From contig CAYXSM010000011.1 of the NCBI GenBank assembly GCA_964466705.1, positions 48,193 to 112,192 on the forward strand: 64,000 nt of DNA, read 5' to 3'. Both the position numbers and the translations under genes were made by a program. Positions 38,282 to 52,595 of this stretch are shown here, in pieces (within the stretch, counting starts at the first letter, position 1; each line of letters starts with the position of its first letter). Source of the stretch: an uncultured Rikenellaceae bacterium (GTDB lineage Bacteria; Bacteroidota; Bacteroidia; Bacteroidales; VadinHA17). Below the pieces are notes generated by a model that was not told where the DNA came from, searched no databases, and saw nothing but the letters and a program-made list of their open reading frames with translations.

Positions 38282-41104
38282 TTATCCGGGAGAGCTGACC
38301 TTGTTAACCAGATAAACCACTGACTTGTGAGATATACCGGAATGCAGGCTCAGGCCTATTTCACATGTCCGGCTGGTAGAGTATCCGTGTTTTACTTCCG
38401 GAGGTATCTGAGCTTTAAGATTCCGTAATCCATGCCGGTTGAGCTCAGGATATGTAAATCCTCTGTCTCCTGCAAATCCGCAGCAGTTAGTGTCAGGCAC
38501 TATTACTTCACCGGCACATTTCTTTGCCAGAGCAACCAGCATTTCTGTCAGTCCCATTTTTTTCATGCTGCAGACAGGAAAGACAGTGACTGTTTCATTA
38601 ACAGGTGTTATTTTAAGCCATGGAAGCAGGTATTCCGTGATGAACTGGACAGGTTCATAAAGCTTCAGTCCTGAGGTGAAATTCTCCTTCATTGTATAAA
38701 GACACGGGCTCATATCGCAGAGAACAGGAAACTCCCCGTTGTTACTTGCTTTAAGAAGAGCTTTTTCCAGTTCTTCGGACTTTTTTTCGCCGGCTTTTTT
38801 GTATCCTTTGCTGAGAAATGCCATTCCGCAACACAGCTCATCCATGTTTTCGGGAAAGACAGCTTCGTAACCGGCTTTATTAAGAAGACATATCATTTCC
38901 CGTGTGAGCTGGGCCTCTTCGTTATGATCTTTTGAAGTTCCCATTGAACGGTTTATGCACGACGGAAAATATACCACTTTTCGCAGGCCGTTGCTGATTA
39001 GAGGACCAGCTGCATTTATCTTTGTGGCACCGCCTGGCATATAAGGATTCCAGAAAGGGATTCTTCTTCCCGACATATTCCTGAGTCCTCCTGCAATCCA
39101 TTTCATAAGGGTTGTACCAAGGATTTTGTGGAACAGACTTACAAAAGAGAGTGCCTTTCGGGCAACAGATGTTACAAATGCCATATGATCTGCAATCCAG
39201 GATGCCACTCTCTGCCTGTTGCCGATTTTTTCAAGGCGCAGCTTTTTGACCAGCTTTCCCGTATCGATTTTGACCGGGCAGCTTATGGCACATAAACCGT
39301 CAGTAGCACATGTCTTATCTCCTTCATAAGAGTAGGAACGCACCAGAGAAGAGACTATATGGGGCTCCTGTCCGGTTTTAAGGAGGCTTGATATCTCCCT
39401 GTATACTACTATACGCTGCCTTGGTGAAAGGGTCAGGTCCGAGGACACACACGACGGTTCGCAGAAGCCGCATTCAATGCATTTATCTATTTCATCGTCA
39501 GCAGCGGGAATGGGCTTAAGATTCCTCAGATGTATTTCAGGATCCTGATTCAGAATGACACCCGGATTGAGAATGTTAAGCGGGTCAAAGATTTCCTTGA
39601 TCCTCTCCATTACCTGATATGCTTCTTTTCCCCATTCCTGCATTACAAAAGGAGCAACATTCCTTCCTGTTCCATGCTCCGCTTTCAGCGACCCGTCATA
39701 CCTGGCAACCACAAGGTCCGATACTTCAGCCATCAGGTTTTTATATCTCGCAATCTCCTCTTTGATTCCGAAATCCTGACTGAAAATAAAATGAAGGTTG
39801 CCTTCCAGGGCGTGACCATAGATTACGGCATCATTATAACCGTAATTCTTCAGAATATTCTGAAGGTCAGAAGTGGCGTCGCCAAGCCTTTGAATGGGGA
39901 AAGCGACATCTTCTATGATCACGGTTGTGCCTTTTTTTCTCATTGCACCTACTGACGGGAACAATCCTTTCCTTATGTCCCAGTAAACGGAATACTCTTT
40001 CGGATTATCCGTAAAAGTAAGGGGCATTTCTGACGGAATATCACTGATTGCTTCAAGGATTTTCTCAATCTGTCTGCCGAGATCCGGTTGATGATCTGTT
40101 GATGTTTCTACCAGCAGCGCACTTGCTCCGGGAGACAGCTTTTTAAGAAAGTCAGGCATACCGGGCTCATTCTCAACTGACCGCAGTCCTGATCGGTCGA
40201 TTATTTCCACTGCTGTCACCGGAGCAGATTTTAAGCGCACGACTGCTGTGCAGGCATGCCTAAGCCCCGGAAAGATCATCAGGGAACTGGCTTTGTATTT
40301 ATGCTCGGCTACTGTATTAAGATTAATTCCGGAAATAAAACCAAGAGTGCCTTCCGAACCTATCATCAGATGCTTTATTATATCAAAGACACCGGTGAAA
40401 TCGGTCAGCGCATTAAGGCTGTAACCGGTTGTGTTCTTGAGAAGGTATTTATGTTTAATCCTGTCTGACAGAGGCTTGTTTTCCTGCACTGACTTTGCCA
40501 GTGCCATAATATTTTTTACGAGGTCTGAATGTGATTCCAGGAAACAATCCCTGCTTTTTCCGTCACCTGTATCAAGAACCGTTCCGTCAGCAAGGACGAT
40601 CCGCAGGCTCTCAATGGTATTATATGCATTTTCTCCGGTTCCGCTGCTCATTCCGCTTGCATTGTTCGCAATTATTCCTCCTATGGTGGCTGCATTGATT
40701 GAGGCAGGGTCGGGACCAATCTTTCTGCCGTAAGGAGCCAGAAGAGAATTTATATAACCACCAGTCAGCCCGGGTTGCAGACTTATCTTTAAGCCATTAT
40801 CGGTAATGCTGTAATTTTTCCAGTAGTCTGATGCTATTACAAGAACGGAATCGGTTATGGCCTGACCTGAAAGACTTGTTCCGGCTGCACGGAATGTTAC
40901 GGGGATCCTGAGCGAGGAGCATTCCCTTACAATAAGAGATATTTCGCCCTCGTCTTTTGCCTTGATAACCATTTTCGGGATCAGCCGGTAGAAACTTGCA
41001 TCGGCACCAAAGGCCAGGGTGTGCAGAGGATCATGGTATATCCTTTTTTTATCTATTTGTCTGACTAATCTGTTATATAGATCAAGATGTTTTCCATTAA
41101 GCAT
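38282..41104 (-). CDS. FAD-linked oxidase fused to Fe-S/CCG domains (YdiJ / D-lactate- or D-2-hydroxyacid-dehydrogenase-like), cytoplasmic
   Basis: 940 aa. N-terminal FAD PCMH-type domain, 4Fe-4S motifs CIECGFCEPSC and CATDGLCAISCP, and two CCG motifs (CCGMAF, CCGFAGD). Confidence 0.85.
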   Translation of the reverse strand: MLNGKHLDLYNRLVRQIDKKRIYHDPLHTLAFGADASFYRLIPKMVIKAKDEGEISLIVRECSSLRIPVTFRAAGTSLSGQAITDSVLVIASDYWKNYSITDNGLKISLQPGLTGGYINSLLAPYGRKIGPDPASINAATIGGIIANNASGMSSGTGENAYNTIESLRIVLADGTVLDTGDGKSRDCFLESHSDLVKNIMALAKSVQENKPLSDRIKHKYLLKNTTGYSLNALTDFTGVFDIIKHLMIGSEGTLGFISGINLNTVAEHKYKASSLMIFPGLRHACTAVVRLKSAPVTAVEIIDRSGLRSVENEPGMPDFLKKLSPGASALLVETSTDHQPDLGRQIEKILEAISDIPSEMPLTFTDNPKEYSVYWDIRKGLFPSVGAMRKKGTTVIIEDVAFPIQRLGDATSDLQNILKNYGYNDAVIYGHALEGNLHFIFSQDFGIKEEIARYKNLMAEVSDLVVARYDGSLKAEHGTGRNVAPFVMQEWGKEAYQVMERIKEIFDPLNILNPGVILNQDPEIHLRNLKPIPAADDEIDKCIECGFCEPSCVSSDLTLSPRQRIVVYREISSLLKTGQEPHIVSSLVRSYSYEGDKTCATDGLCAISCPVKIDTGKLVKKLRLEKIGNRQRVASWIADHMAFVTSVARKALSFVSLFHKILGTTLMKWIAGGLRNMSGRRIPFWNPYMPGGATKINAAGPLISNGLRKVVYFPSCINRSMGTSKDHNEEAQLTREMICLLNKAGYEAVFPENMDELCCGMAFLSKGYKKAGEKKSEELEKALLKASNNGEFPVLCDMSPCLYTMKENFTSGLKLYEPVQFITEYLLPWLKITPVNETVTVFPVCSMKKMGLTEMLVALAKKCAGEVIVPDTNCCGFAGDRGFTYPELNRHGLRNLKAQIPPEVKHGYSTSRTCEIGLSLHSGISHKSVVYLVNKVSSPG

Positions 41105-41184
41105 TGTTTAATTGTATTTCACCCGGAGACACAAATTCCGGAACAAATTATCATAAAAGATTTTTCACCAATACATCCAGAGTT

Positions 41185-42453
41185 TTAAAGTTCCGAAATT
41201 TTAATATTTTTCCACCTGACTTTTATTCCTCCGCCATCGTGGATCTGCAGAAGTATGCGACCCTGTCCCTGTCCTATTTTTTCATCATTCAGGTCTGTCA
41301 TCAATTCCCCGTTAAGCCATGTGGTCACATTATCACCGACGGTTTTGATGCGCAGGGTATTCCAGTCTTTTGCCTCAAGAAAGGTTTCTTTTTCATCCGG
41401 GATCCTTGCAATCCAGCCTCTGCCGTATGATTCATATATGCCGCCGGTGTCGTGTCCGGGAGGAGCTACCTCAACCTGCCATCCTGATATCTCAACATCC
41501 CTCTTTATATATGAGCGGATGAATACTCCGCTGTTCCCATTGGAGATCAGTTTGAAGTCCAGACTGAGGTCAAAATCATTATAGTATTTTCTTGTACCAA
41601 GGTAACCGTATTTTTTTTCCGGACCGCTTTCGCAAACAAGCTCTCCGTTGTCAACATACCACAGTTCGGTTCCATAAGCTTCCCATCCGGTCAGATCAAC
41701 ACCGTTAAATAGCACCTCCTCCCTGGGTTTGCGTGGCAGTTCTTTCAGCTTTATGTTCTTGTACCATGTTTTGCTGCCATGATCCTGCAGGGAAATATAA
41801 CCTTTTCTTGCAAGTCCGTACTCAGGGGCATAGTCCCATTTACCGCCTGACCGGCGTTCGAACCAGTCATCGGACCATGCTTCGAATTCAATGATCTTTT
41901 CCCCGTTGAGCCAGTGTTCAACGTGACCGTTGTCAAAAACTATTTTGGAGGAATTCCAAAGTCCTGCCTTTTTTACAATCTTTTTATCCGGATCAGGCAC
42001 ATACATTGCATAATCAGCGCCAGCCTTCTGCCAATCCTCGAGTTTTTCAGGAAAGCCCAGATCGTCAATTACCTGGTACTCAGGACCTGAAACATACGGT
42101 ACTTTATACTCAGGACGTTCAAGGACATGATATAATACCCCGCTGTTTCCCCCTTCAGCTATTTTCCAGTCAAAGGTGAGAATAAAGTTCTCATACTGCT
42201 TCTCGGTAACAATGTAACCTGTGCTATCGCTCCCAAGTCCCAGTCCTGATAGAGATCCGCGATCAACTTTCCATGGGCCTTTCAGGTCTTCTCCCTGGAA
42301 ATCGCGCCAGCCATTCAGCGTCTTACCATCGAACAGCAGGGTCCAGCCTTCCTCTGCTTCCAGTAAGGTCAGCTTGTTGTCGGCTTGTTTACAGCCTGTA
42401 AATACTAATCCCGTAAAAAGGATAATTGTCAGGGAAAAAAGTTTTTGTTTCAT
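41185..42453 (-). CDS. Lipoprotein with two tandem DUF1080 (3-keto-disaccharide-hydrolase-like) domains
   Basis: Lipobox FTGC. Two repeats each carry LFDGKxLxGW / NSGVxxx / WLNG / LQxHG...KNIK (LLFDGKTLNGW...ISLQDHGSKTWYKNIKLKEL and VLFNGVDLTGW...LLQIHDGGGIKVRWKNIKISEL). Confidence 0.75.
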   Translation of the reverse strand: MKQKLFSLTIILFTGLVFTGCKQADNKLTLLEAEEGWTLLFDGKTLNGWRDFQGEDLKGPWKVDRGSLSGLGLGSDSTGYIVTEKQYENFILTFDWKIAEGGNSGVLYHVLERPEYKVPYVSGPEYQVIDDLGFPEKLEDWQKAGADYAMYVPDPDKKIVKKAGLWNSSKIVFDNGHVEHWLNGEKIIEFEAWSDDWFERRSGGKWDYAPEYGLARKGYISLQDHGSKTWYKNIKLKELPRKPREEVLFNGVDLTGWEAYGTELWYVDNGELVCESGPEKKYGYLGTRKYYNDFDLSLDFKLISNGNSGVFIRSYIKRDVEISGWQVEVAPPGHDTGGIYESYGRGWIARIPDEKETFLEAKDWNTLRIKTVGDNVTTWLNGELMTDLNDEKIGQGQGRILLQIHDGGGIKVRWKNIKISEL

Positions 42454-42847: not shown

Positions 42848-44146
42848 TTACAGTGAATACACTGGTATTTTAAGCAGTTCCCCGTCATTTAATGCTGATT
42901 TGTGTGCCACAATTCCTGGGACTGTCATATTAAGGGCAGATACAATATCGATCAGAGGCTTACGGTCCAGAAGGATTGATTCGATGAACTCATTCATCAG
43001 GTTTCCGTGCGATCCTCCGTGGCCGCCTGCAGGTACTCCCGGGGGAAGCGGGGGACGTCTCAGGTCAGGAAGGTTTTTCTCAAGACCTTCGTATCTGCCA
43101 TAAAACGATCCTCTCTGTCCTCTGATCCTTCCTCTCTCTCCACCGTCACCGGGTGTGTCCCAGCTGACACCCATCCGGGCCATTCCCCCTTCACTGGTCC
43201 GGAAAAGGGCTATTTCAGTGCCATATGGATTTTTATAAATGTTGTTTTCAGGCCTCAGGTGCGCAATGATACTGGGCATTCCGGCACATGATACTTCAGT
43301 GAAAGCACCACCTGTTACCCCTGTATGATAGGCATTTGAGTGAGTGGGATACCATTGAGGCGGAAGTCCGATACGCCATCCCCTGAATGAGTCAATGGGC
43401 TCGCTCATATAGTGAAAATATTCGCCTTCAGAATAGACCAGTTTCCCGAAGCCCCCCATGTCGCAGACCTTCCGCATGGCATACAGGTCTTCCCTGAAGC
43501 ATGATGTTTCAAACATCATATATTTTAATCCGCTCGATCTGACTTCCTCAAACAGTTTGTCTGCATCTTCAAGTGAACCGAAAACGGCAGGAACTGCACA
43601 GGCCACATGTTTTCCATGGCGGAGAGCATCGATGACATGTCTGGCATGACCGGGAGCATCCGTTGCCACAAAGACTGCTTCAATATTCTCATCTTTGACG
43701 AGCTCCTCAAGTGACGGATAAGTCCTGGAACAATTGCATACCCTTGCGAGCTCAGAACACCTGTCAGGGAAAAGGTCACTTACCGCCACTATCTCCACAT
43801 TCGGGTGATTCTGGAAACCAAAATCAGCTCCAAACCTGCATACTCCATAACCTACGATACCTACACGAACCTTACGGTCGGTCAAAGGCTCCCAGACTCT
43901 GATTGATCCATTATCGTCCGGCTCTCTTTCAAATCCCTGTATCGGAGGGATATCTGACTGTTCACTAAGTGGTTTTCTGCCGACAGAACATCCGGACTGT
44001 GTAATCCCGTATGCAGCTGCTCCAATCCCTGCAACACGGATAAAATTACGCCTGGAAAAGGTCCTGTCTGTTTGTGATCTGTCAGCTTGGCATGGAGAGA
44101 TATTTTCTTTGCTATTTCCGGTTTTTCTTTCTGGCTTTGCTTTCAT
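42848..44146 (-). CDS. Tat-signal Gfo/Idh/MocA-family NAD(P) oxidoreductase (dehydrogenase or GH109-like)
   Basis: FSRRNFIRVAGIGAAAYG twin-arginine signal, Rossmann VGIVGYGVCRFG, and a Gfo/Idh/MocA C-terminal alpha/beta domain. Confidence 0.8.
   Translation of the reverse strand: MKAKPERKTGNSKENISPCQADRSQTDRTFSRRNFIRVAGIGAAAYGITQSGCSVGRKPLSEQSDIPPIQGFEREPDDNGSIRVWEPLTDRKVRVGIVGYGVCRFGADFGFQNHPNVEIVAVSDLFPDRCSELARVCNCSRTYPSLEELVKDENIEAVFVATDAPGHARHVIDALRHGKHVACAVPAVFGSLEDADKLFEEVRSSGLKYMMFETSCFREDLYAMRKVCDMGGFGKLVYSEGEYFHYMSEPIDSFRGWRIGLPPQWYPTHSNAYHTGVTGGAFTEVSCAGMPSIIAHLRPENNIYKNPYGTEIALFRTSEGGMARMGVSWDTPGDGGERGRIRGQRGSFYGRYEGLEKNLPDLRRPPLPPGVPAGGHGGSHGNLMNEFIESILLDRKPLIDIVSALNMTVPGIVAHKSALNDGELLKIPVYSL
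44036..44056 (-). other. Twin-arginine motif (SRRNFIR) of the Gfo/Idh/MocA protein
   Basis: Codons verified: TCC AGG CGT AAT TTT ATC CGT. Confidence 0.65.
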
Positions 44147-46468: not shown

Positions 46469-46927
46469 TTATTTTAACTTCTCAATTTTCCATAACTCTC
46501 CGTTCTTTACGGAAATATCTGATGTTTCAATGATAACTTCTCTTTTAAGCGATTTAACAGTTGTTTTCCTGTTTTGCAGGATTTCCTCCAGGGAATAAGT
46601 TCCTTCCTCCGGCACCTTTATCCTTATTTTCGCTTTTTCCTTAGTTTTGCCGTGGTTAAGCACATAAAGCAGGTGACCTCCCGGGTAGTTGTGCAGACGC
46701 ACAACAAGGGGATTTTTCTTTTCTCCTTCCTGTGTAATATCAAACGGCCTTTCAATTTTAGCCCATTCGACAAGGCCTGATAGAAACCTGTTAACATTCT
46801 CGTTGGCAGAGTCCTGAACCGTCAGACGCTGAGTTGACTGATCCCACAGCGATCCTCTCGAGTTAGCCATTGCGATGAATGATCCGATAAAAATTGTGTG
46901 CCCCATACCGTAATCTGATGATATCAT
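46469..46927 (-). CDS. Short ORF resembling only the C-terminal part of a GH42-type beta-galactosidase; either a gene remnant or a stand-alone domain
   Basis: 152 aa with no signal peptide. ...LVVRLHNYPGGHLLYVLNHGKTKEKAKIRIKV...ELWKIEKL resembles the GH42 C-terminal beta-sandwich. The stop lies 2 nt from the next start. Confidence 0.35.
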   Translation of the reverse strand: MISSDYGMGHTIFIGSFIAMANSRGSLWDQSTQRLTVQDSANENVNRFLSGLVEWAKIERPFDITQEGEKKNPLVVRLHNYPGGHLLYVLNHGKTKEKAKIRIKVPEEGTYSLEEILQNRKTTVKSLKREVIIETSDISVKNGELWKIEKLK

Positions 46928-47010: not shown

Positions 47011-48291
47011 TTACTTTTCCATTTTGAGCAGCTTATTCATGGCAGTCATAAGAATATTCTCGCAGGATGGCTGCAATCTGGACACGCTGACCTCATATCC
47101 TCCTGTCTTAAAAGCTTCAGCTGTAGGAATATAACCAAAACTGTAATCACCGTAAGCTGCCATGGTCACAAAAAGATCAGGCCTCATGGATTTAGCGGCG
47201 AGTTGATATTCTACAAACAGCTCTCCCGGCATAAAAAGGGCACGTGCACTATTTACTGCAAGGCATCCGATATCTACGGAATCAGAAATTCTGAATCTTT
47301 TCAGAAACTCGGAGTCCAAAGCTGCGTCTCTGGCCGAATCAACCGGAAGAGTAACTGTTTCTGTGAACCACTTAACGGAATATTTTGTCACAGGTTCTTT
47401 GCGGCTGTCTTCATAGGCTTTTTTCATTCCTGAGGCCAGACGTTCAGCAAGTATCAGACGGTTTTCGTGGGAGCCGTCGTTATATTTTCCTGCACCTATG
47501 TTGCCACCGGCGCCATTGAAGTGAACATGAAGAGCATCAGGAACTGCAAGCTGCCGCATAAAGCGCGCAACACCGGGGAAATCCGGATTTGCAATGCCCA
47601 GACGGTAGTAGCTCTGCGGATGGGTTGCATAGAAACTCAGCACTGCAAGAGGTTTTTCTTCGTTCCAGAAAGATATCACTGAGACCATGGGATCGATAAG
47701 TCCTTCAGGCTCAGCCCTGAGATCCGGATCAGCTGTGGCAGTGTAACGCGTAGCCCTGACCATGCCGTCAGGCCCAAATATACGCCTGTTGGAAGCAACC
47801 TTTTCCACCTCTGACGATCCTAATCCTATGTGGGTGACTTTCAGTGGCTTCTCCAGAGATTTTACTATCTCCATCTCAATCCGGTGCAGGACAGCCAGGA
47901 TAAAATCGGTTTTCATATCCCCGACAGGAGCATCATGCTGATGTATGGTATGCACTGCAACTCTCTCAGGAATTGTGCCTGCTGCCAGGGCAACAGCGCG
48001 TTTGAATTCCCTGTGGGTTTCGTTGCCTATTCCTATCCAGTCAATGGAAAGAAGGACTATGGGTTTGTCATTCCCTGTGATTACAATTCCTTTCGCTCTC
48101 AATCCCAGATCCCATTTGTTCCTGCATTCATCATAAGCCAACTGGTATCCAATGGGGGGAGTTGCGTCAACATCGAAAGTAGCTATCATCAGGCTGTCGC
48201 CTTGCCCGGCCGGCACTGGGTAATTATCGGCTGATGCAGCACCAGCAGTAAGATTTATAAAAAATATCAGACAGAAAATGAGGTGTTTCAT
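47011..48291 (-). CDS. Exported neutral/alkaline-ceramidase-N-terminal-domain-like hydrolase (divergent)
   Basis: Signal peptide. HTIHQHDAP, FYATHPQ and GGYEVS motifs are colinear with the 51210-52595 paralogue. Confidence 0.5.
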   Translation of the reverse strand: MKHLIFCLIFFINLTAGAASADNYPVPAGQGDSLMIATFDVDATPPIGYQLAYDECRNKWDLGLRAKGIVITGNDKPIVLLSIDWIGIGNETHREFKRAVALAAGTIPERVAVHTIHQHDAPVGDMKTDFILAVLHRIEMEIVKSLEKPLKVTHIGLGSSEVEKVASNRRIFGPDGMVRATRYTATADPDLRAEPEGLIDPMVSVISFWNEEKPLAVLSFYATHPQSYYRLGIANPDFPGVARFMRQLAVPDALHVHFNGAGGNIGAGKYNDGSHENRLILAERLASGMKKAYEDSRKEPVTKYSVKWFTETVTLPVDSARDAALDSEFLKRFRISDSVDIGCLAVNSARALFMPGELFVEYQLAAKSMRPDLFVTMAAYGDYSFGYIPTAEAFKTGGYEVSVSRLQPSCENILMTAMNKLLKMEK

Positions 48292-48303: not shown

Positions 48304-49593
48304 TTATAGTGAATTTAGTTTGTCCCTGTTTTCATAAACCTTTACAATGGCGTCGAATATTTTGTCAAGATAGCTCCTGTCTGCGGCGGCCGGAACATCA
48401 AGTGACAGAACTTCTTCATCACAAACGGCATCACATACCGGACAACCAATTTCATCCCTGTACTTTCCAAGCCTTGCTTCAGAAAACATGTTGCGGTAAA
48501 CTTTAAGTTCAAGCAGGTGATTTTGAATCAGTTCCGACTTATGGAATCCGTATTGAATATAACCACTTGCTTTCACGCCTTCAGCAATTAGGGCTTTAAT
48601 CAGTTTGTCGCGGCTTGCGCCGTTAAAATGTTCTTTTCTGTATGAACACAGGAACAACCACCACGATGACGTTCCTGTTCCTTCATAGAGTTTCTGGGGA
48701 ATAATCCCCGGGAAACCCCTCAGCCTGCTTCTCATGTACCAGGAGTTCTCATTCCTTCTGTCATGTCTTCCGCGTATACCGTCAAGCTGGGGAAGCAATA
48801 TTGCTCCTTCAAATTCATTCATTCTGTATTTAGGTCCTATTACAGCATGTTGTCCGGTACGTGTTGTTCCATGGTTCTGAACCGTAAAGCATTTCTCCAT
48901 AAGCTCCATGTCATTTCCGACAATTGCACCTCCTTCTCCGCAGGCAATGTTTTTACTGGCCTGAAAACTGAAGCAGCCAAGTTTTCCGATCGTGCCGAGT
49001 TTCTTTCCCTGGAACTCAGTCAGGTGAGCCTGGCAGGCATCTTCAATAACTACAAGGTTGTGCTTTTCTGCAATAGCCATAATACGCTCCATATCTGCTG
49101 GTTGCCCTCCGATATGCACGGGAATTATGGCTTTTGTGTTTTCTGTGATCCTTTTCTCGACCTCATCCGGGTCAAGCTGGAATGAGTCCCTGTCAAGGTC
49201 GGCAAAGACAGGAAGCGCCCTGCTGAAAGTTATTGCTGAAACAGTTCCAATGTCGGTGTAGGGTGAGGTAATCACCTCATCCCCGGCTCCGATTCCGAGA
49301 GCTTCCACGCAGGTGTTGAGCGCCTGGGTTCCTGCACCGGTGGCAACACAATATTTTGTCCCTATAAGTCTGGCATATTCCTTCTCAAATGTGGCTACTG
49401 TACCTGTTGCGGATTGTATCCTGCACCAGATTCCGCTTGCGGCAGTCCGGGCTATTGATTCTACCATTTTTTCATCAACATAAGGAGGAGGAGGAACCGG
49501 GCTTGTAAAAGGATTTATCACCGGCGTGCCTCCGAGAGCGGCCAACTCACTGGCAGCTTTACCCGAATTGATAATTATATTGTTCATTTTCAT
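48304..49593 (-). CDS. DegT/DnrJ/EryC1/StrS-family PLP aminotransferase without signal peptide
   Basis: PLP-lysine motif CFSFQASKNIACGEGG and GAGTQAL. The start is set at the MKMNN Met (49593), since the track's 49734 start would overlap the upstream gene by 124 nt. Aligns with the paralogue from ALGGTP onward. Confidence 0.85.
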   Translation of the reverse strand: MKMNNIIINSGKAASELAALGGTPVINPFTSPVPPPPYVDEKMVESIARTAASGIWCRIQSATGTVATFEKEYARLIGTKYCVATGAGTQALNTCVEALGIGAGDEVITSPYTDIGTVSAITFSRALPVFADLDRDSFQLDPDEVEKRITENTKAIIPVHIGGQPADMERIMAIAEKHNLVVIEDACQAHLTEFQGKKLGTIGKLGCFSFQASKNIACGEGGAIVGNDMELMEKCFTVQNHGTTRTGQHAVIGPKYRMNEFEGAILLPQLDGIRGRHDRRNENSWYMRSRLRGFPGIIPQKLYEGTGTSSWWLFLCSYRKEHFNGASRDKLIKALIAEGVKASGYIQYGFHKSELIQNHLLELKVYRNMFSEARLGKYRDEIGCPVCDAVCDEEVLSLDVPAAADRSYLDKIFDAIVKVYENRDKLNSL

Positions 49594-49610
49594 CTTTTCC
49601 CGTTTTAATT

Positions 49611-50951
49611 TTAAAGAGAATTTAGCTTGTCCCTGTTTTCGTAAACCTTCATCACCGCATTTATTATCTCGTCCATAACGCTCTGACTGGCTAGTAAAGG
49701 ACCTGATGCCCATATCATAGCCATCTCGTTGCACACCTGTTCACAGTTGGGAAGATAAAGCTCATCACGATATCTTTTGAGCCTTTCCGGAGCGAAGAAT
49801 TTTTTATATACATCAAGGTTAAGTATATAATCAGTCCAGGGTTCCTTGTTAAGGCCCCGGGGTATATAAGCTGAAAGTTCAACCCCTTCAGCGGCCATCG
49901 CCTTAAGGAATTTGCTTCTGTCGGCATTGTTGAAATGTTCCTTTTTGTAAGCCATTGAATATAGATAGAATGAACCTTCGGTGGTGCCAGGGTATAATTT
50001 CTGAGGTACAAGTCCGGGGAAGTTTTTAAGCCGGGAGGTTAGATATGCTGCATTACGGTTTCTGATTTCATGCCTTTCCCTGAATCCTTCAAGCTGACTT
50101 CTCAGAACAGCAGCTTCAAATTCGTTCATTCTGTACTTGGTGCCAACGACTTTGTGCCCTCCGTTCATCATTACAGTGAATACCTTTTCCATGAGAGCTT
50201 CATCGTTGCCAATCACAGCCCCGCCTTCACCGCATGCAAGGGTTTTTGTGGTCTGAAAGCTGAAACATCCGACATCACCAATTGATCCGAGGATTTTTCC
50301 CTGATATACAGCCAGATGAGCCTGACAGGAGTCTTCTATCACCCTTAGATTATGCTTTCTGGCCAGTGTCATGATCCTTGACAGATGACAAGGCTGGCCC
50401 ATCATGTGCACAGGCATCAATGCTCTGGTATTTGCATTGATCTTTCTTTCGACGTCCCTCGGATCAAGCTGAAATGATTCCGGATCAAGATCGGCCATTA
50501 CCGGCAATGCCCGTGATGTAAGTATTGAAGAGATGGTCCCCATATCTGTGTATGGTGATGTTATAACTTCATCTCCCGCGCCTATTCCCATTGCCTCAAT
50601 GCAGCAGCTCAGCGCCTGCGTTCCTGTGCCGGTAGTTACGCAGCGTTTAGTGCCGGTAATGGCTGCGTATTCTTTTTCAAAGGACTGTACGTTGCCCGTT
50701 TCGGATTGTATCCTTGACCAGATACCACTCCGGGCTGTCTTTTTTATTGCCTCTACCATTTTTTGGTCAACGTACGGCCATTCGGGCCATTTTCCGGCAC
50801 TAACGGCCGGAGTACCGCCAAGGATAGCCAGCTTTGAAGCATTACTGCCTGTTTTTCCCAGCACCGGAAGAGCCCCGGTAGCAACGACTCCAATAGAACC
50901 AGCAGACACTGTGTTTATGAAGCGTCTTCTGGAAAGTTTTCGGTTTGCCAT
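49611..50951 (-). CDS. DegT/DnrJ/EryC1/StrS-family PLP aminotransferase with twin-arginine signal peptide
   Basis: MANRKLSRRRFINTVSAGSIGVVATGALPVLG. PLP-lysine motif CFSFQTTKTLACGEGG. The C-terminus KVYENRDKLNSL is shared with the downstream paralogue. Confidence 0.85.
   Translation of the reverse strand: MANRKLSRRRFINTVSAGSIGVVATGALPVLGKTGSNASKLAILGGTPAVSAGKWPEWPYVDQKMVEAIKKTARSGIWSRIQSETGNVQSFEKEYAAITGTKRCVTTGTGTQALSCCIEAMGIGAGDEVITSPYTDMGTISSILTSRALPVMADLDPESFQLDPRDVERKINANTRALMPVHMMGQPCHLSRIMTLARKHNLRVIEDSCQAHLAVYQGKILGSIGDVGCFSFQTTKTLACGEGGAVIGNDEALMEKVFTVMMNGGHKVVGTKYRMNEFEAAVLRSQLEGFRERHEIRNRNAAYLTSRLKNFPGLVPQKLYPGTTEGSFYLYSMAYKKEHFNNADRSKFLKAMAAEGVELSAYIPRGLNKEPWTDYILNLDVYKKFFAPERLKRYRDELYLPNCEQVCNEMAMIWASGPLLASQSVMDEIINAVMKVYENRDKLNSL
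50913..50933 (-). other. Twin-arginine motif (SRRRFIN) of DegT paralogue 1
   Basis: Codons verified: TCC AGA AGA CGC TTC ATA AAC. Matches the S/T-R-R-x-F-L-K consensus and is followed by an h-region. Confidence 0.65.
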
Positions 50952-51209: not shown

Positions 51210-52595
51210 TCACTTAAGCACCTGAATTCCTGCTTTTTCAGCAAGCCTTATCATTTCATTTATTATTGCCGATTGAATATTCATGTTCCAGGGAGTTGTA
51301 AAAAAGGGTGAACGCGTTCCTTCATAGCCTCCTTCCTTGAGGATGGTCTCAGAAGGGATGTAGGCCATAATATCATTTGAGTAACCCATGACAAAAATAT
51401 CCTGTCCGAATATCTTCTTCAGTTCAATGGCATATTCTATGACAAGTTCTCCGCCAAGAGCTATAATAGCCTGATTACCAACACTCCACACCTGGCATGG
51501 AAACGGGTAAACGGTATCAAATACTTCACCACGATCAAGGCGCTGTAACAGTGTTTTTGCAGTTAGCTTCAGGTAATCAGGAGTATCGGATGTATCGCTT
51601 ATATGTTGCAGCAGATCCGTTTTGGAAGGGGGAGGGTTGGCGAATTGAAGGTTTATTTCGGAGTATCCGGTTGACAGTGATGGTTCGAGCCTCTGCATCT
51701 CCTCATTGAGAACTCTGTCAACAGCTGCGGCAAGTGTTCTTCCGTATTGTTGGGCGAGGGGTACGCTCCTGCGGGGCAGGGGATTCTGATCGGCCCCGGC
51801 TCCCTGGAAGAACATCGCTGTTGTTCCAGGGTACAGCTTTTCAATCTCTTTCTGGGCAAAGCCGGGATAGTCTCCAGAGAACAGATAAAAATTGAGCACT
51901 GTTGGATGGCATGCATATCCAAAAACGATGGCCAGCAATTTTCCTGATCTGTCTGTGATTTTAAGCACAGGCACGGCATAATCATTAGGGCCTTTCAGAT
52001 CGTTGATCTGAGTACTCAGAGCTTCAGGATTATTTCTTCTGTTGACCTGAAAACGGGCAATGCCATTTCCTGAATATATATCTGCTGGTTCCATGCGATT
52101 CAGGGCGGTTCCGACAAGATCGACAATCAGGTTCTCAATTTTGTCAGTATAGGCAGTGATTTTGGTAAGTTGTTCTTCATCAAGCGGGTACCAGTTTGAA
52201 AGAGCATCATAAAGGACAGGTCCTGTATGTGTGTGAGAACAGTTCAGGATCACCTGGGCTCTGGTAAGACCATATTTTTTCTCCAGACGGTCACGGATCC
52301 GGTCCGAACTGATTTTTGGGATCTCAAGGAGGTCATTTGTAATTAGTACAGCCTTGTTTCCGTCTGCGTCTTCAAGAACCAGCACTTTTGTCCATAAATC
52401 GTGTAAAATACCTTCTGAGACATGGTCTCTCGATGCATATCCTGCCATCCACAGGGATTCCTCAGGGGTAATTACCATACTGGCGATGCCTGCCTTCCAT
52501 CCCGGTTTGTTTTCATCAGCACCATCAACGGGAAACAAATTAATACATGACAATAACAAACAGGTCAGCAGAACTGTTTTTTTGAGAAATTTCAT
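51210..52595 (-). CDS. Exported neutral/alkaline-ceramidase-N-terminal-domain-like hydrolase
   Basis: Signal peptide. GWKAGIASMVITPEESLWMAGY, NCSHTHTGP and GYACHPT motifs are typical of proteins annotated as the ceramidase N-terminal domain. At 461 aa it lacks the C-terminal tail domain. Confidence 0.6.
   Translation of the reverse strand: MKFLKKTVLLTCLLLSCINLFPVDGADENKPGWKAGIASMVITPEESLWMAGYASRDHVSEGILHDLWTKVLVLEDADGNKAVLITNDLLEIPKISSDRIRDRLEKKYGLTRAQVILNCSHTHTGPVLYDALSNWYPLDEEQLTKITAYTDKIENLIVDLVGTALNRMEPADIYSGNGIARFQVNRRNNPEALSTQINDLKGPNDYAVPVLKITDRSGKLLAIVFGYACHPTVLNFYLFSGDYPGFAQKEIEKLYPGTTAMFFQGAGADQNPLPRRSVPLAQQYGRTLAAAVDRVLNEEMQRLEPSLSTGYSEINLQFANPPPSKTDLLQHISDTSDTPDYLKLTAKTLLQRLDRGEVFDTVYPFPCQVWSVGNQAIIALGGELVIEYAIELKKIFGQDIFVMGYSNDIMAYIPSETILKEGGYEGTRSPFFTTPWNMNIQSAIINEMIRLAEKAGIQVLK

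Follow-up and report, generated by a model that had tools for sequence, protein, structure and literature searches.

We analysed a 64,000-nucleotide (nt) stretch of DNA from an uncultured Rikenellaceae bacterium (GenBank assembly GCA_964466705.1, contig CAYXSM010000011.1, positions 48,193 to 112,192), referred to here as the window. Its minus strand carries two tandem paralogues of the DegT family of pyridoxal 5'-phosphate (PLP)-dependent aminotransferases, and we named the first, signal-bearing gene P1 and the second, signal-less gene P2 (Table 1). Exactly 17 nt separate the P1 stop codon (TAA) from the P2 start codon (ATG), as given in a first-pass annotation of the locus. BLASTP alignment of the two products showed 243 identities in 425 positions (57%, E = 6e-180), slightly more than the half that had been estimated by eye. 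Both matched the PF01041 (DegT_DnrJ_EryC1) profile far above its gathering cut-off of 19.8 (P1, 4.5e-81 and 273 bits; P2, 2.2e-88 and 297 bits). P1 does have the extra N-terminal residues that had been noticed, but the net excess was about 24 and not about 30, with P1 residue 30 aligning to P2 residue 6.

Both paralogues retain the catalytic residues of the family. The PLP-lysine motif reported earlier was confirmed in each, as SFQTTK236TLACGEGG in P1 and SFQASK214NIACGEGG in P2, and IED(S/A)CQAH was likewise present in both, so that the PLP-binding Asp/Gln and Ser are kept. The PLP-binding residues were invariant in 28-sequence alignments of each clade. AlphaFold2 (AF2) monomer models of P1 (predicted local distance difference test, pLDDT, 80; predicted template modelling score, pTM, 0.80; pLDDT < 50 at residues 5-35) and P2 (pLDDT 78.5; pTM 0.80; pLDDT < 50 at residues 251-256) confirm, at the level of prediction, a fold-type I aminotransferase fold for both. 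The loop that would reach across the subunit interface and the lysine region were of low confidence in these models, which carry fold information and none on the interface. A Foldseek search with the P2 model gave Fic25, the archaeal sugar transaminase 7B0D, perosamine synthase and BtrR as top matches, with template modelling (TM) scores of 0.69-0.76. Against the NCBIfam equivalogs (LegC, PseC, ArnB, WecE, DesI, RfbH) the best scores were 165-180 bits, compared with cut-offs of 375-650, and the pair is outside every named nucleoside diphosphate (NDP)-sugar aminotransferase equivalog.

The almost identical C-termini described in the first-pass annotation were also found, the common end being KVYENRDKLNSL. 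At the nucleotide level, the last 12 codons of P1 (49611-49649, minus strand) and P2 (48304-48342, minus strand) share 32 of 36 nt and eight identical codons, compared with a gene-wide third-position identity of 40% at conserved residues. The matching 3' ends may reflect a short gene-conversion tract or a constraint at the nucleotide level.

Table 1. Features of the P1/P2 locus and of neighbouring genes (positions are those of the window).
Feature	Position	Strand	Description
P1	49611-50951	-	446 amino acids (aa); DegT-family PLP aminotransferase with twin-arginine translocation (Tat)-type signal; begins MANRKLSRRRFINTVSAGSIGVVATGALPVLGKTGSNA
P1 predicted Tat signal peptide	50838-50951	-	residues 1-38, MANRKLSRRRFINTVSAGSIGVVATGALPVLGKTGSNA
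P1 twin-arginine motif SRRRFIN	50913-50933	-	sequence motif
P1 catalytic lysine K236	50244-50246	-	SFQTTKTLACG; invariant in clade alignment
P1 shortened loop	50139-50177	-	residues 259-271, TVMMNGGHKVVGT; 5-residue deletion, ancestral NHGTxR motif lost
Spacer, P1 stop to P2 start	49594-49610	-	17 nt, AATTAAAACGGGAAAAG; no terminator-like site
P2	48304-49593	-	429 aa; DegT-family paralogue without signal; begins MKMNNIIINSGKAASELAALGGTP
P2 catalytic lysine K214	48952-48954	-	SFQASKNIACG; invariant in 28 sequences
P2 full-length loop and GxKxR	48823-48876	-	residues 240-257, NHGTTRTGQHAVIGPKYR; ancestral form
Ceramidase-like amidohydrolase A	51210-52595	-	upstream of P1; N-terminal export signal; PF04734, 4.4e-15
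Distant ceramidase-like protein B	47011-48291	-	12 nt downstream of P2; Sec-type signal MKHLIFCLIFFINLTAGAASA
Gfo/Idh/MocA oxidoreductase	42848-44146	-	Tat motif SRRNFIRVAGIGAAAYG; PF01408, 6.4e-17

The predicted signal peptide of P1 is laid out as SRRRFIN, followed by TVSAGSIGVVATGALPVL and then SNA, after which cleavage is likely. All 27 orthologues of the P1 clade were 445-455 aa long and carried [ST]RR[RK]F[IL]. Residues R8, R9 and F11 did not vary in any of the 27, and their conservation among the 45 outgroup sequences was 80% or higher. We based the Tat assignment of P1 on the motif and its conservation. The curated Tat-signal profiles PF10518 and TIGR01409 gave no hit on P1, and matches to the Rieske model PF10399 stayed below threshold (E = 0.007, 16 bits vs 24); profiles as short as these are insensitive.

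P2 showed neither a twin arginine, an h-region nor a cleavage-like site by motif inspection and Tat-signal profiles. It might nevertheless be exported alone, either along a pathway not recognised so far or because its start is annotated wrongly; in both cases there would be no asymmetry to explain. The mechanical list of open reading frames (ORFs) does extend P2 by 47 codons to a GTG at 49734, and the database annotation of one gene (P0194) gives a protein longer by 17 residues. However, the extension in the window overlaps the coding end of P1 in another frame, and its translation, MQRDGYDMGIRSFTSQSERYGRDNKCGDEGLRKQGQAKFSLKLKREK, lacks both a twin arginine and a hydrophobic stretch. The P0194 call adds only MITATSLIQSELKRLSI, again with no twin arginine or hydrophobic core. 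The 29 P2-type orthologues share a short polar N-terminus, MKTNDIxINSxRSAxKLAILGG, and P2 orthologues have an in-frame stop 2-10 codons 5' of the conserved ATG. At L167, only 'RL' precedes MKTKNITI in this frame. Because these stops sit just upstream in orthologues, a hidden P2 signal is ruled out, and we rejected an upstream start. A longer, signal-encoding start, which the first-pass annotation had named as a threat to its proposal, was found neither in the window extension nor upstream of the orthologues, and export of P2 on its own is very improbable.

The signal-less P2 types formed one clade (clade A, with the P1 types) whose internal branching mirrors that of the P1 clade in a neighbour-joining tree. 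We examined the P2 loci in the window, L081/82, L083-85, L086, L100, L166, L167/68, L169/70, L171 and L172. Each P2-type gene with readable surroundings lay directly downstream of a P1 type (11 distinct lineages), with a gap of mostly 17-22 nt (range -1 to ~130 nt), and in eight further pairs the P1 type and the P2 type come from contigs of equal length. Single-copy orthologous loci had been foreseen as evidence against a joint role; the loci found carry both copies. The neighbours of the pair varied widely (melibiase with DUF6807, sulfatases, heparinase II/III-like genes, amidohydrolases, GH42), and only a ceramidase-like gene recurred among them. Adjacency and order kept amid shuffled neighbours are a classic signature of interacting subunits, and we read P1 and P2 in this way because both are strictly kept while the flanks differ completely. 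We rejected a fusion of the two products by frameshift or read-through, since spacer length and frame vary among orthologues. The sigma-70/terminator scan, which is uninformative for Bacteroidota, showed no terminator between P1 and P2, and none of the RNA runs contained the P1-P2 locus.

P2, having no signal, could instead be a cytoplasmic homodimeric isozyme acting on the imported product or on a precursor, with P1 a periplasmic homodimer and the tandem reflecting co-regulation only. We regard this as possible but doubtful. No P2 type was found away from a P1 type in the loci examined, despite the complete turnover of neighbours, which argues against two separately working enzymes.

The P2 types are under clear purifying selection: mean column identity was 74% over 28 sequences, more than 150 columns were invariant, and all catalytic residues were among the invariant ones. 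The synonymous sites of P1 and P2 are saturated (third-position identity 0.40), and the clade is therefore old. Both observations argue against the idea that heterodimers form as by-products, that the P1 homodimer is the functional exported species and that P2 is a decaying or regulatory duplicate which, for example, titrates or retains P1 in the cytoplasm. Relaxed constraint at family-conserved positions of P2 (frequencies of 0.3-0.7 within the P2 clade at 396-417) would agree with such a duplicate, but we consider it improbable. Separately, a subgroup of P2 types (L100, L169-L171; P0145-P0148, P0150) carries an insertion of ~15-20 residues just after LGGxPV, for example REMQLREVDESDQLTDDIIVGSRRGIPIT.

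The wider DegT family to which P1 and P2 belong appears to be Tat-exported and almost entirely signal-bearing. Across 165 loci from the matches listed, the relatives at 35-66% identity nearly all carried [ST]RRxF signals; their hosts were Bacteroidota, Planctomycetota (Sedimentisphaerales, Phycisphaerae) and other metagenome-assembled genomes (MAGs). The metagenome scan returned, among the matches listed, mainly distant Tat-bearing relatives, and a scan of genome contigs with P2 as query, using over-specific peptide patterns, gave no close orthologues (best 62%, Planctomycetota). The closest solved structures were 27-34% identical: Fic25 (PDB 8GYH), an archaeal sugar transaminase, BtrR/RbmB and perosamine synthase. 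A literature search on DegT combined with Tat or periplasm found no relevant paper on Tat-bearing DegT enzymes. Tandem duplication is frequent in the family, since other branches also carry tandems: at L093:3438-6223 and L120:1390-4289 the two copies, 63% and 54% identical respectively, both have a Tat signal.

A second branch (clade B), represented by L154 and 34-36% identical to P1/P2, showed the same arrangement, with a Tat-bearing copy (456 aa), 19 nt and then a signal-less copy (419-422 aa), the two being 66% identical. The clade-B signal-less type made up 33 database clusters (417-422 aa, start MExNIQNDKPALLGG), which share contigs with Tat partners of ~455 aa; the tandem was confirmed in L173-L176. 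From sequence comparison, this tandem appears to have evolved independently of clade A. The pairing of a signal-bearing with a signal-less copy, for which a survey had been proposed in the first-pass annotation, thus recurs in other genomes and has arisen independently at least twice. That a second independent lineage keeps the arrangement in 33 clusters is a further point against P2 as a decaying duplicate.

Clade B also showed how the signal-less state arises. In L177 and L178 the downstream gene of the same orthologous group still carries a Tat signal, at the same tandem position and spacing. The downstream proteins P0231 (Tat) and P0240 (no signal) were 85% identical over 413 aa with no gaps, and their upstream partners were 87% identical, so that the mature proteins showed no acceleration after signal loss (85% vs 87% for the partner). 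The DNA alignment of P0231 and P0240 showed a clean in-frame deletion of ~100 nt, from the twin arginine to the end of the signal, with the start codon and the spacer kept. Because orthologues that are otherwise 85% identical differ by a clean signal deletion, the second signal looks dispensable, and this matches the prediction of heterodimer "hitchhiker" export. The Tat-bearing and signal-less downstream forms were each other's nearest neighbours, and the signal was therefore apparently lost more than once. Excision of the signal, apparently repeated and leaving the mature protein otherwise unchanged, resembles neutral loss of a signal that was redundant rather than adaptive relocation of the downstream enzyme to the cytoplasm.

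The divergence of the two paralogues in clade A was compared over 27 P1-type sequences, 29 P2-type sequences and 45 Tat-bearing relatives present in single copy, at those columns where conservation among the single-copy relatives reached 80% or more. Both paralogues kept 194 of these columns, while 43 were kept by P1 only and 12 by P2 only. Of the 43 P1-only columns, 7 belong to the signal peptide and 36 to the mature part, and the positions lost by P2 include WPxW, FY328-329 (WW in P2), PW371-372 (VI in P2) and the C-terminal WASGPLLG. Five of the 12 P2-only columns (N240, H241, T243, R245, G247) fell in one loop, equivalent to P1 262-267, where TVMMNGGHK-----VVGTKY of P1 aligned with TVQNHGTTRTGQHAVIGPKY of P2. 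The 5-residue deletion in this loop was present in 27/27 P1 types, 0/29 P2 types and 2/45 sequences first binned as outgroup. Both deletion-bearing sequences of the outgroup show other P1-type motifs, and one of them (P0049) comes from a contig equal in length to that of the P2-type P0147.

The GxKxR and loop of P2 align to the GxNxR and loop of other DegT enzymes (alignment to 7b0d). In the heterodimeric DegT enzyme SerTA, the partner-chain loop Thr174-Gln187* together with Asn189*/Arg191* completes the active site of the neighbouring subunit (PMC11726168). By this comparison P1 would have degenerated in the element that it donates to its partner, and exclusively alongside a P2 whose own copy of the element is intact, while P2 would have drifted in elements of its own pocket. 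Such a pattern would be expected of an obligate heterodimer in which a single composite site stays ancestral. The confinement of the P1 loop deletion to cases with an intact-loop P2 speaks against P1 and P2 working as homodimers in separate compartments. A charge screen between the clades showed opposite conserved charges at P1 R299/P2 E282 and at P1 D428/P2 K411, and the D at the P1 428 position was invariant in the 45 single-copy relatives. These two pairs are candidate heterodimer-specific contacts.

On these comparisons we lean towards the reading that P1 and P2 leave the cytoplasm as one folded, PLP-loaded heterodimer on the single Tat signal of P1. The two would be the subunits of a PLP-dependent sugar or aminocyclitol aminotransferase working in the periplasm. 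Translated from one mRNA, each subunit would fold and bind PLP in the cytoplasm and pair with the other via the conserved fold-type I dimer interface. The Tat translocase would then carry the complex by the twin-arginine signal of P1, with P2 riding along as a "hitchhiker". The site on the P1 body would be closed by the ancestral cross-subunit loop of P2, and the reciprocal site (P2 body and the shortened loop of P1) would be remodelled. Co-export of a signal-bearing and a signal-less subunit was the proposal of the first-pass annotation; it has gained comparative evidence from the P1 loop deletion and the clean signal excision, and assembly and localisation are still inferred from sequence.

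Several observations weigh against a co-exported heterodimer. P1 did not reach the threshold of the curated Tat-signal profiles PF10518 and TIGR01409, and the mapping of the loop to the partner active site rests on homology to published structures. Both paralogues keep every catalytic residue (Lys, Asp, Gln, Ser), so that each could be an active homodimer. The 36 private changes of P2, including the C-terminal WASGPLLG, equally fit adaptation to a new substrate or compartment, and could mark a changed substrate pocket. In clade B the complementary-divergence test showed no asymmetry (6 vs 6 mature positions) and no loop degeneration. Genes for MFS, SSF and SBF transporters occur frequently at these loci, and some clade-B pairs have an MFS transporter gene 3 nt behind them, which fits a cytoplasmic step. 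A gene for a SIS-domain protein, of cytoplasmic type, precedes the clade-B pair in L175/L176 and fits such a step as well. The retained catalytic residues, the private changes, the transporters and the SIS-domain gene are all in keeping with P2 as a cytoplasmic isozyme.

The two clades and the double-signal tandems suggest a series from a two-signal tandem duplicate, through loss of the second signal, to asymmetric divergence, with the window pair as the last stage. A more specific version of the co-export reading, which we offer tentatively and regard as unlikely in its full form, is that P1 and P2 form an obligate, asymmetric heterodimer that has come far along this series, the steps of which can be followed in public data. 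Repeated neutral loss of the second signal, one signal being enough for a dimer, would have been followed by complementary degeneration, leaving one composite site (P1 body with P2 loop) ancestral and the other free to change. This would have taken place within a large family of periplasmic sugar or aminocyclitol aminotransferases that interconverts N-acyl-amine, amine, ketone and alcohol on glycans beyond the cytoplasm, together with Tat-exported Gfo/Idh/MocA dehydrogenases and ceramidase-like amidases.

If co-export holds, the pair would be a natural case of a homodimeric Tat substrate turned into a paralogue heterodimer that needs one signal peptide. It would bear on the number of signals that Tat needs per oligomer, and on the origin of obligate heteromers from duplicated homomers. 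In addition, it would draw attention to a large family of PLP aminotransferases that work in the periplasm of Bacteroidota, Planctomycetota and relatives, a family for which we found no published study and whose role is probably the breakdown of amino-sugar-containing glycans in sludge, sediment and gut communities.

The separate elements of this proposal have precedents. Heterodimers of which one partner bears the signal are known Tat substrates (PMC10924467, PMC4273604), and so are PLP enzymes that already carry their cofactor, as in PvdN and PtaA (PMC6206403). In E. coli HybOC, DmsAB and PaoABC, as in P1/P2, a twin-arginine subunit is encoded next to a signal-less partner, and co-export in the folded, cofactor-loaded state has been proposed (PMC4273604, PMC10924467). 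However, these systems pair unrelated subunits of redox enzymes, whereas P1 and P2 would be paralogues of one PLP enzyme that was ancestrally a homodimer with two signals. A further difference is that the signal-less state is seen to arise by deletion of the second signal in clade B. The Pseudomonas enzymes PtaA and PvdN bind PLP and fold in the cytoplasm before Tat export to the periplasm (PMC6206403), but they act on the pyoverdine side chain and have no described signal-less partner.

SerTA (Ser4/Ser5 of Serratia sp. ATCC 39006, PDB 8Y96) is likewise encoded by tandem DegT paralogues and forms a heterodimer with a cross-chain loop and N-x-R (PMC11726168), and Ser5 was among the structural matches of the P2 model (rank 46). 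In contrast to P1/P2, Ser4 is truncated and has no catalytic lysine, and the enzyme is cytoplasmic and uses a carrier-protein-bound amino acid as substrate. P1 and P2 are both full length with the lysine, in place of the single active site of SerTA, and one of them has a Tat signal. The resemblance would lie in how the complex works and not in membership of the same system. The closest solved relatives, the L-glutamine:(2-deoxy-)scyllo-inosose aminotransferases BtrR and RbmB together with Fic25 and 7B0D (E 1e-48 to 1e-62, TM 0.72-0.76), share the PLP motifs with P1/P2, and several use non-nucleotide-linked substrates. However, they are 27-34% identical, cytoplasmic, biosynthetic and homodimeric.

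BT2158-type Gfo/Idh/MocA glycoside 3-dehydrogenases of Bacteroides are exported to the periplasm by Tat with cofactor loaded and serve a keto-sugar route (PMC8121099). The window likewise holds a Tat-type Gfo/Idh/MocA gene and a 3-keto-disaccharide hydrolase gene, but the enzyme family is another one and the link to the DegT pair is by gene neighbourhood only. We rejected BT2158/BT2159 as a precedent for a paralogue hitchhiker, as PMC8121099 reports a Tat signal for BT2158 only and proposes no co-export. The P1/P2 pair would be a combination of known themes, namely Tat hitchhiking, heteromeric DegT enzymes and periplasmic PLP enzymes.

The window is part of an extended minus-strand island of genes for sugar utilisation in this Bacteroidales MAG from sludge. 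The ceramidase-like amidohydrolase A matched the PDB neutral ceramidases 4wgk/2zws at ~3e-11, and occupies the same position in L081, and in L173/L174 beside the clade-B pair. The ceramidase-like protein B was 71% identical to the same-position gene of L081. The conserved four-gene module in the window and in L081 consists of ceramidase-like A, P1, P2 and ceramidase-like B, of which three of four carry export signals and P2 does not. These export signals in the core module speak against a cytoplasmic site of action for P2. As a separate observation, neutral-ceramidase-like amidohydrolases recur beside both independent Tat/signal-less pairs (window, L081, L173, L174, L178).

P1/P2 probably process an amino sugar or aminocyclitol as substrate in the periplasm. 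A periplasmic enzyme fits because the close characterised relatives include aminotransferases for non-nucleotide-linked substrates of the scyllo-inosose type. The enzyme would act with the exported ceramidase-like amidases and the Tat-exported Gfo/Idh/MocA dehydrogenase on an N-acylated amino-sugar- or aminocyclitol-type substrate, in the order amide, amine, ketone or the reverse. Such a periplasmic route would comprise de-N-acylation, then transamination and then keto-sugar chemistry, its substrate and direction being guesses.

As a candidate partner of the pair, the Gfo/Idh/MocA oxidoreductase may form or consume the keto intermediate. Its TIGR01409 and PF10518 matches were just below cut-off. 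The Tat motif of this protein is preceded by an unusually long polar N-region of ~30 residues, and the gene may start at a later codon.

Further along the minus strand (38282-42453), one protein contains two 3-keto-disaccharide-hydrolase (PF06439) domains in tandem, and its neighbour is a 940-aa protein in which FAD-linked oxidase, 4Fe-4S dicluster and CCG domains are fused. This neighbourhood suggests a keto-sugar route with an unusual electron outlet. Besides the Gfo/Idh/MocA oxidoreductase and the double-hydrolase protein, the island contains esterases, a GlcNAc-2-epimerase-like protein, an FAD/Fe-S oxidase, and MFS and SSF transporters. A 152-aa ORF at 46469-46927 (minus strand) is the C-terminal remnant of a GH42 beta-galactosidase. 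It aligned at 63% identity with the C-terminal part (residues 627-778) of an intact GH42 of 778 aa that occupies this position in the syntenic L081; the first ~626 codons are missing here, and only 83 nt lie between the remnant and the upstream gene.

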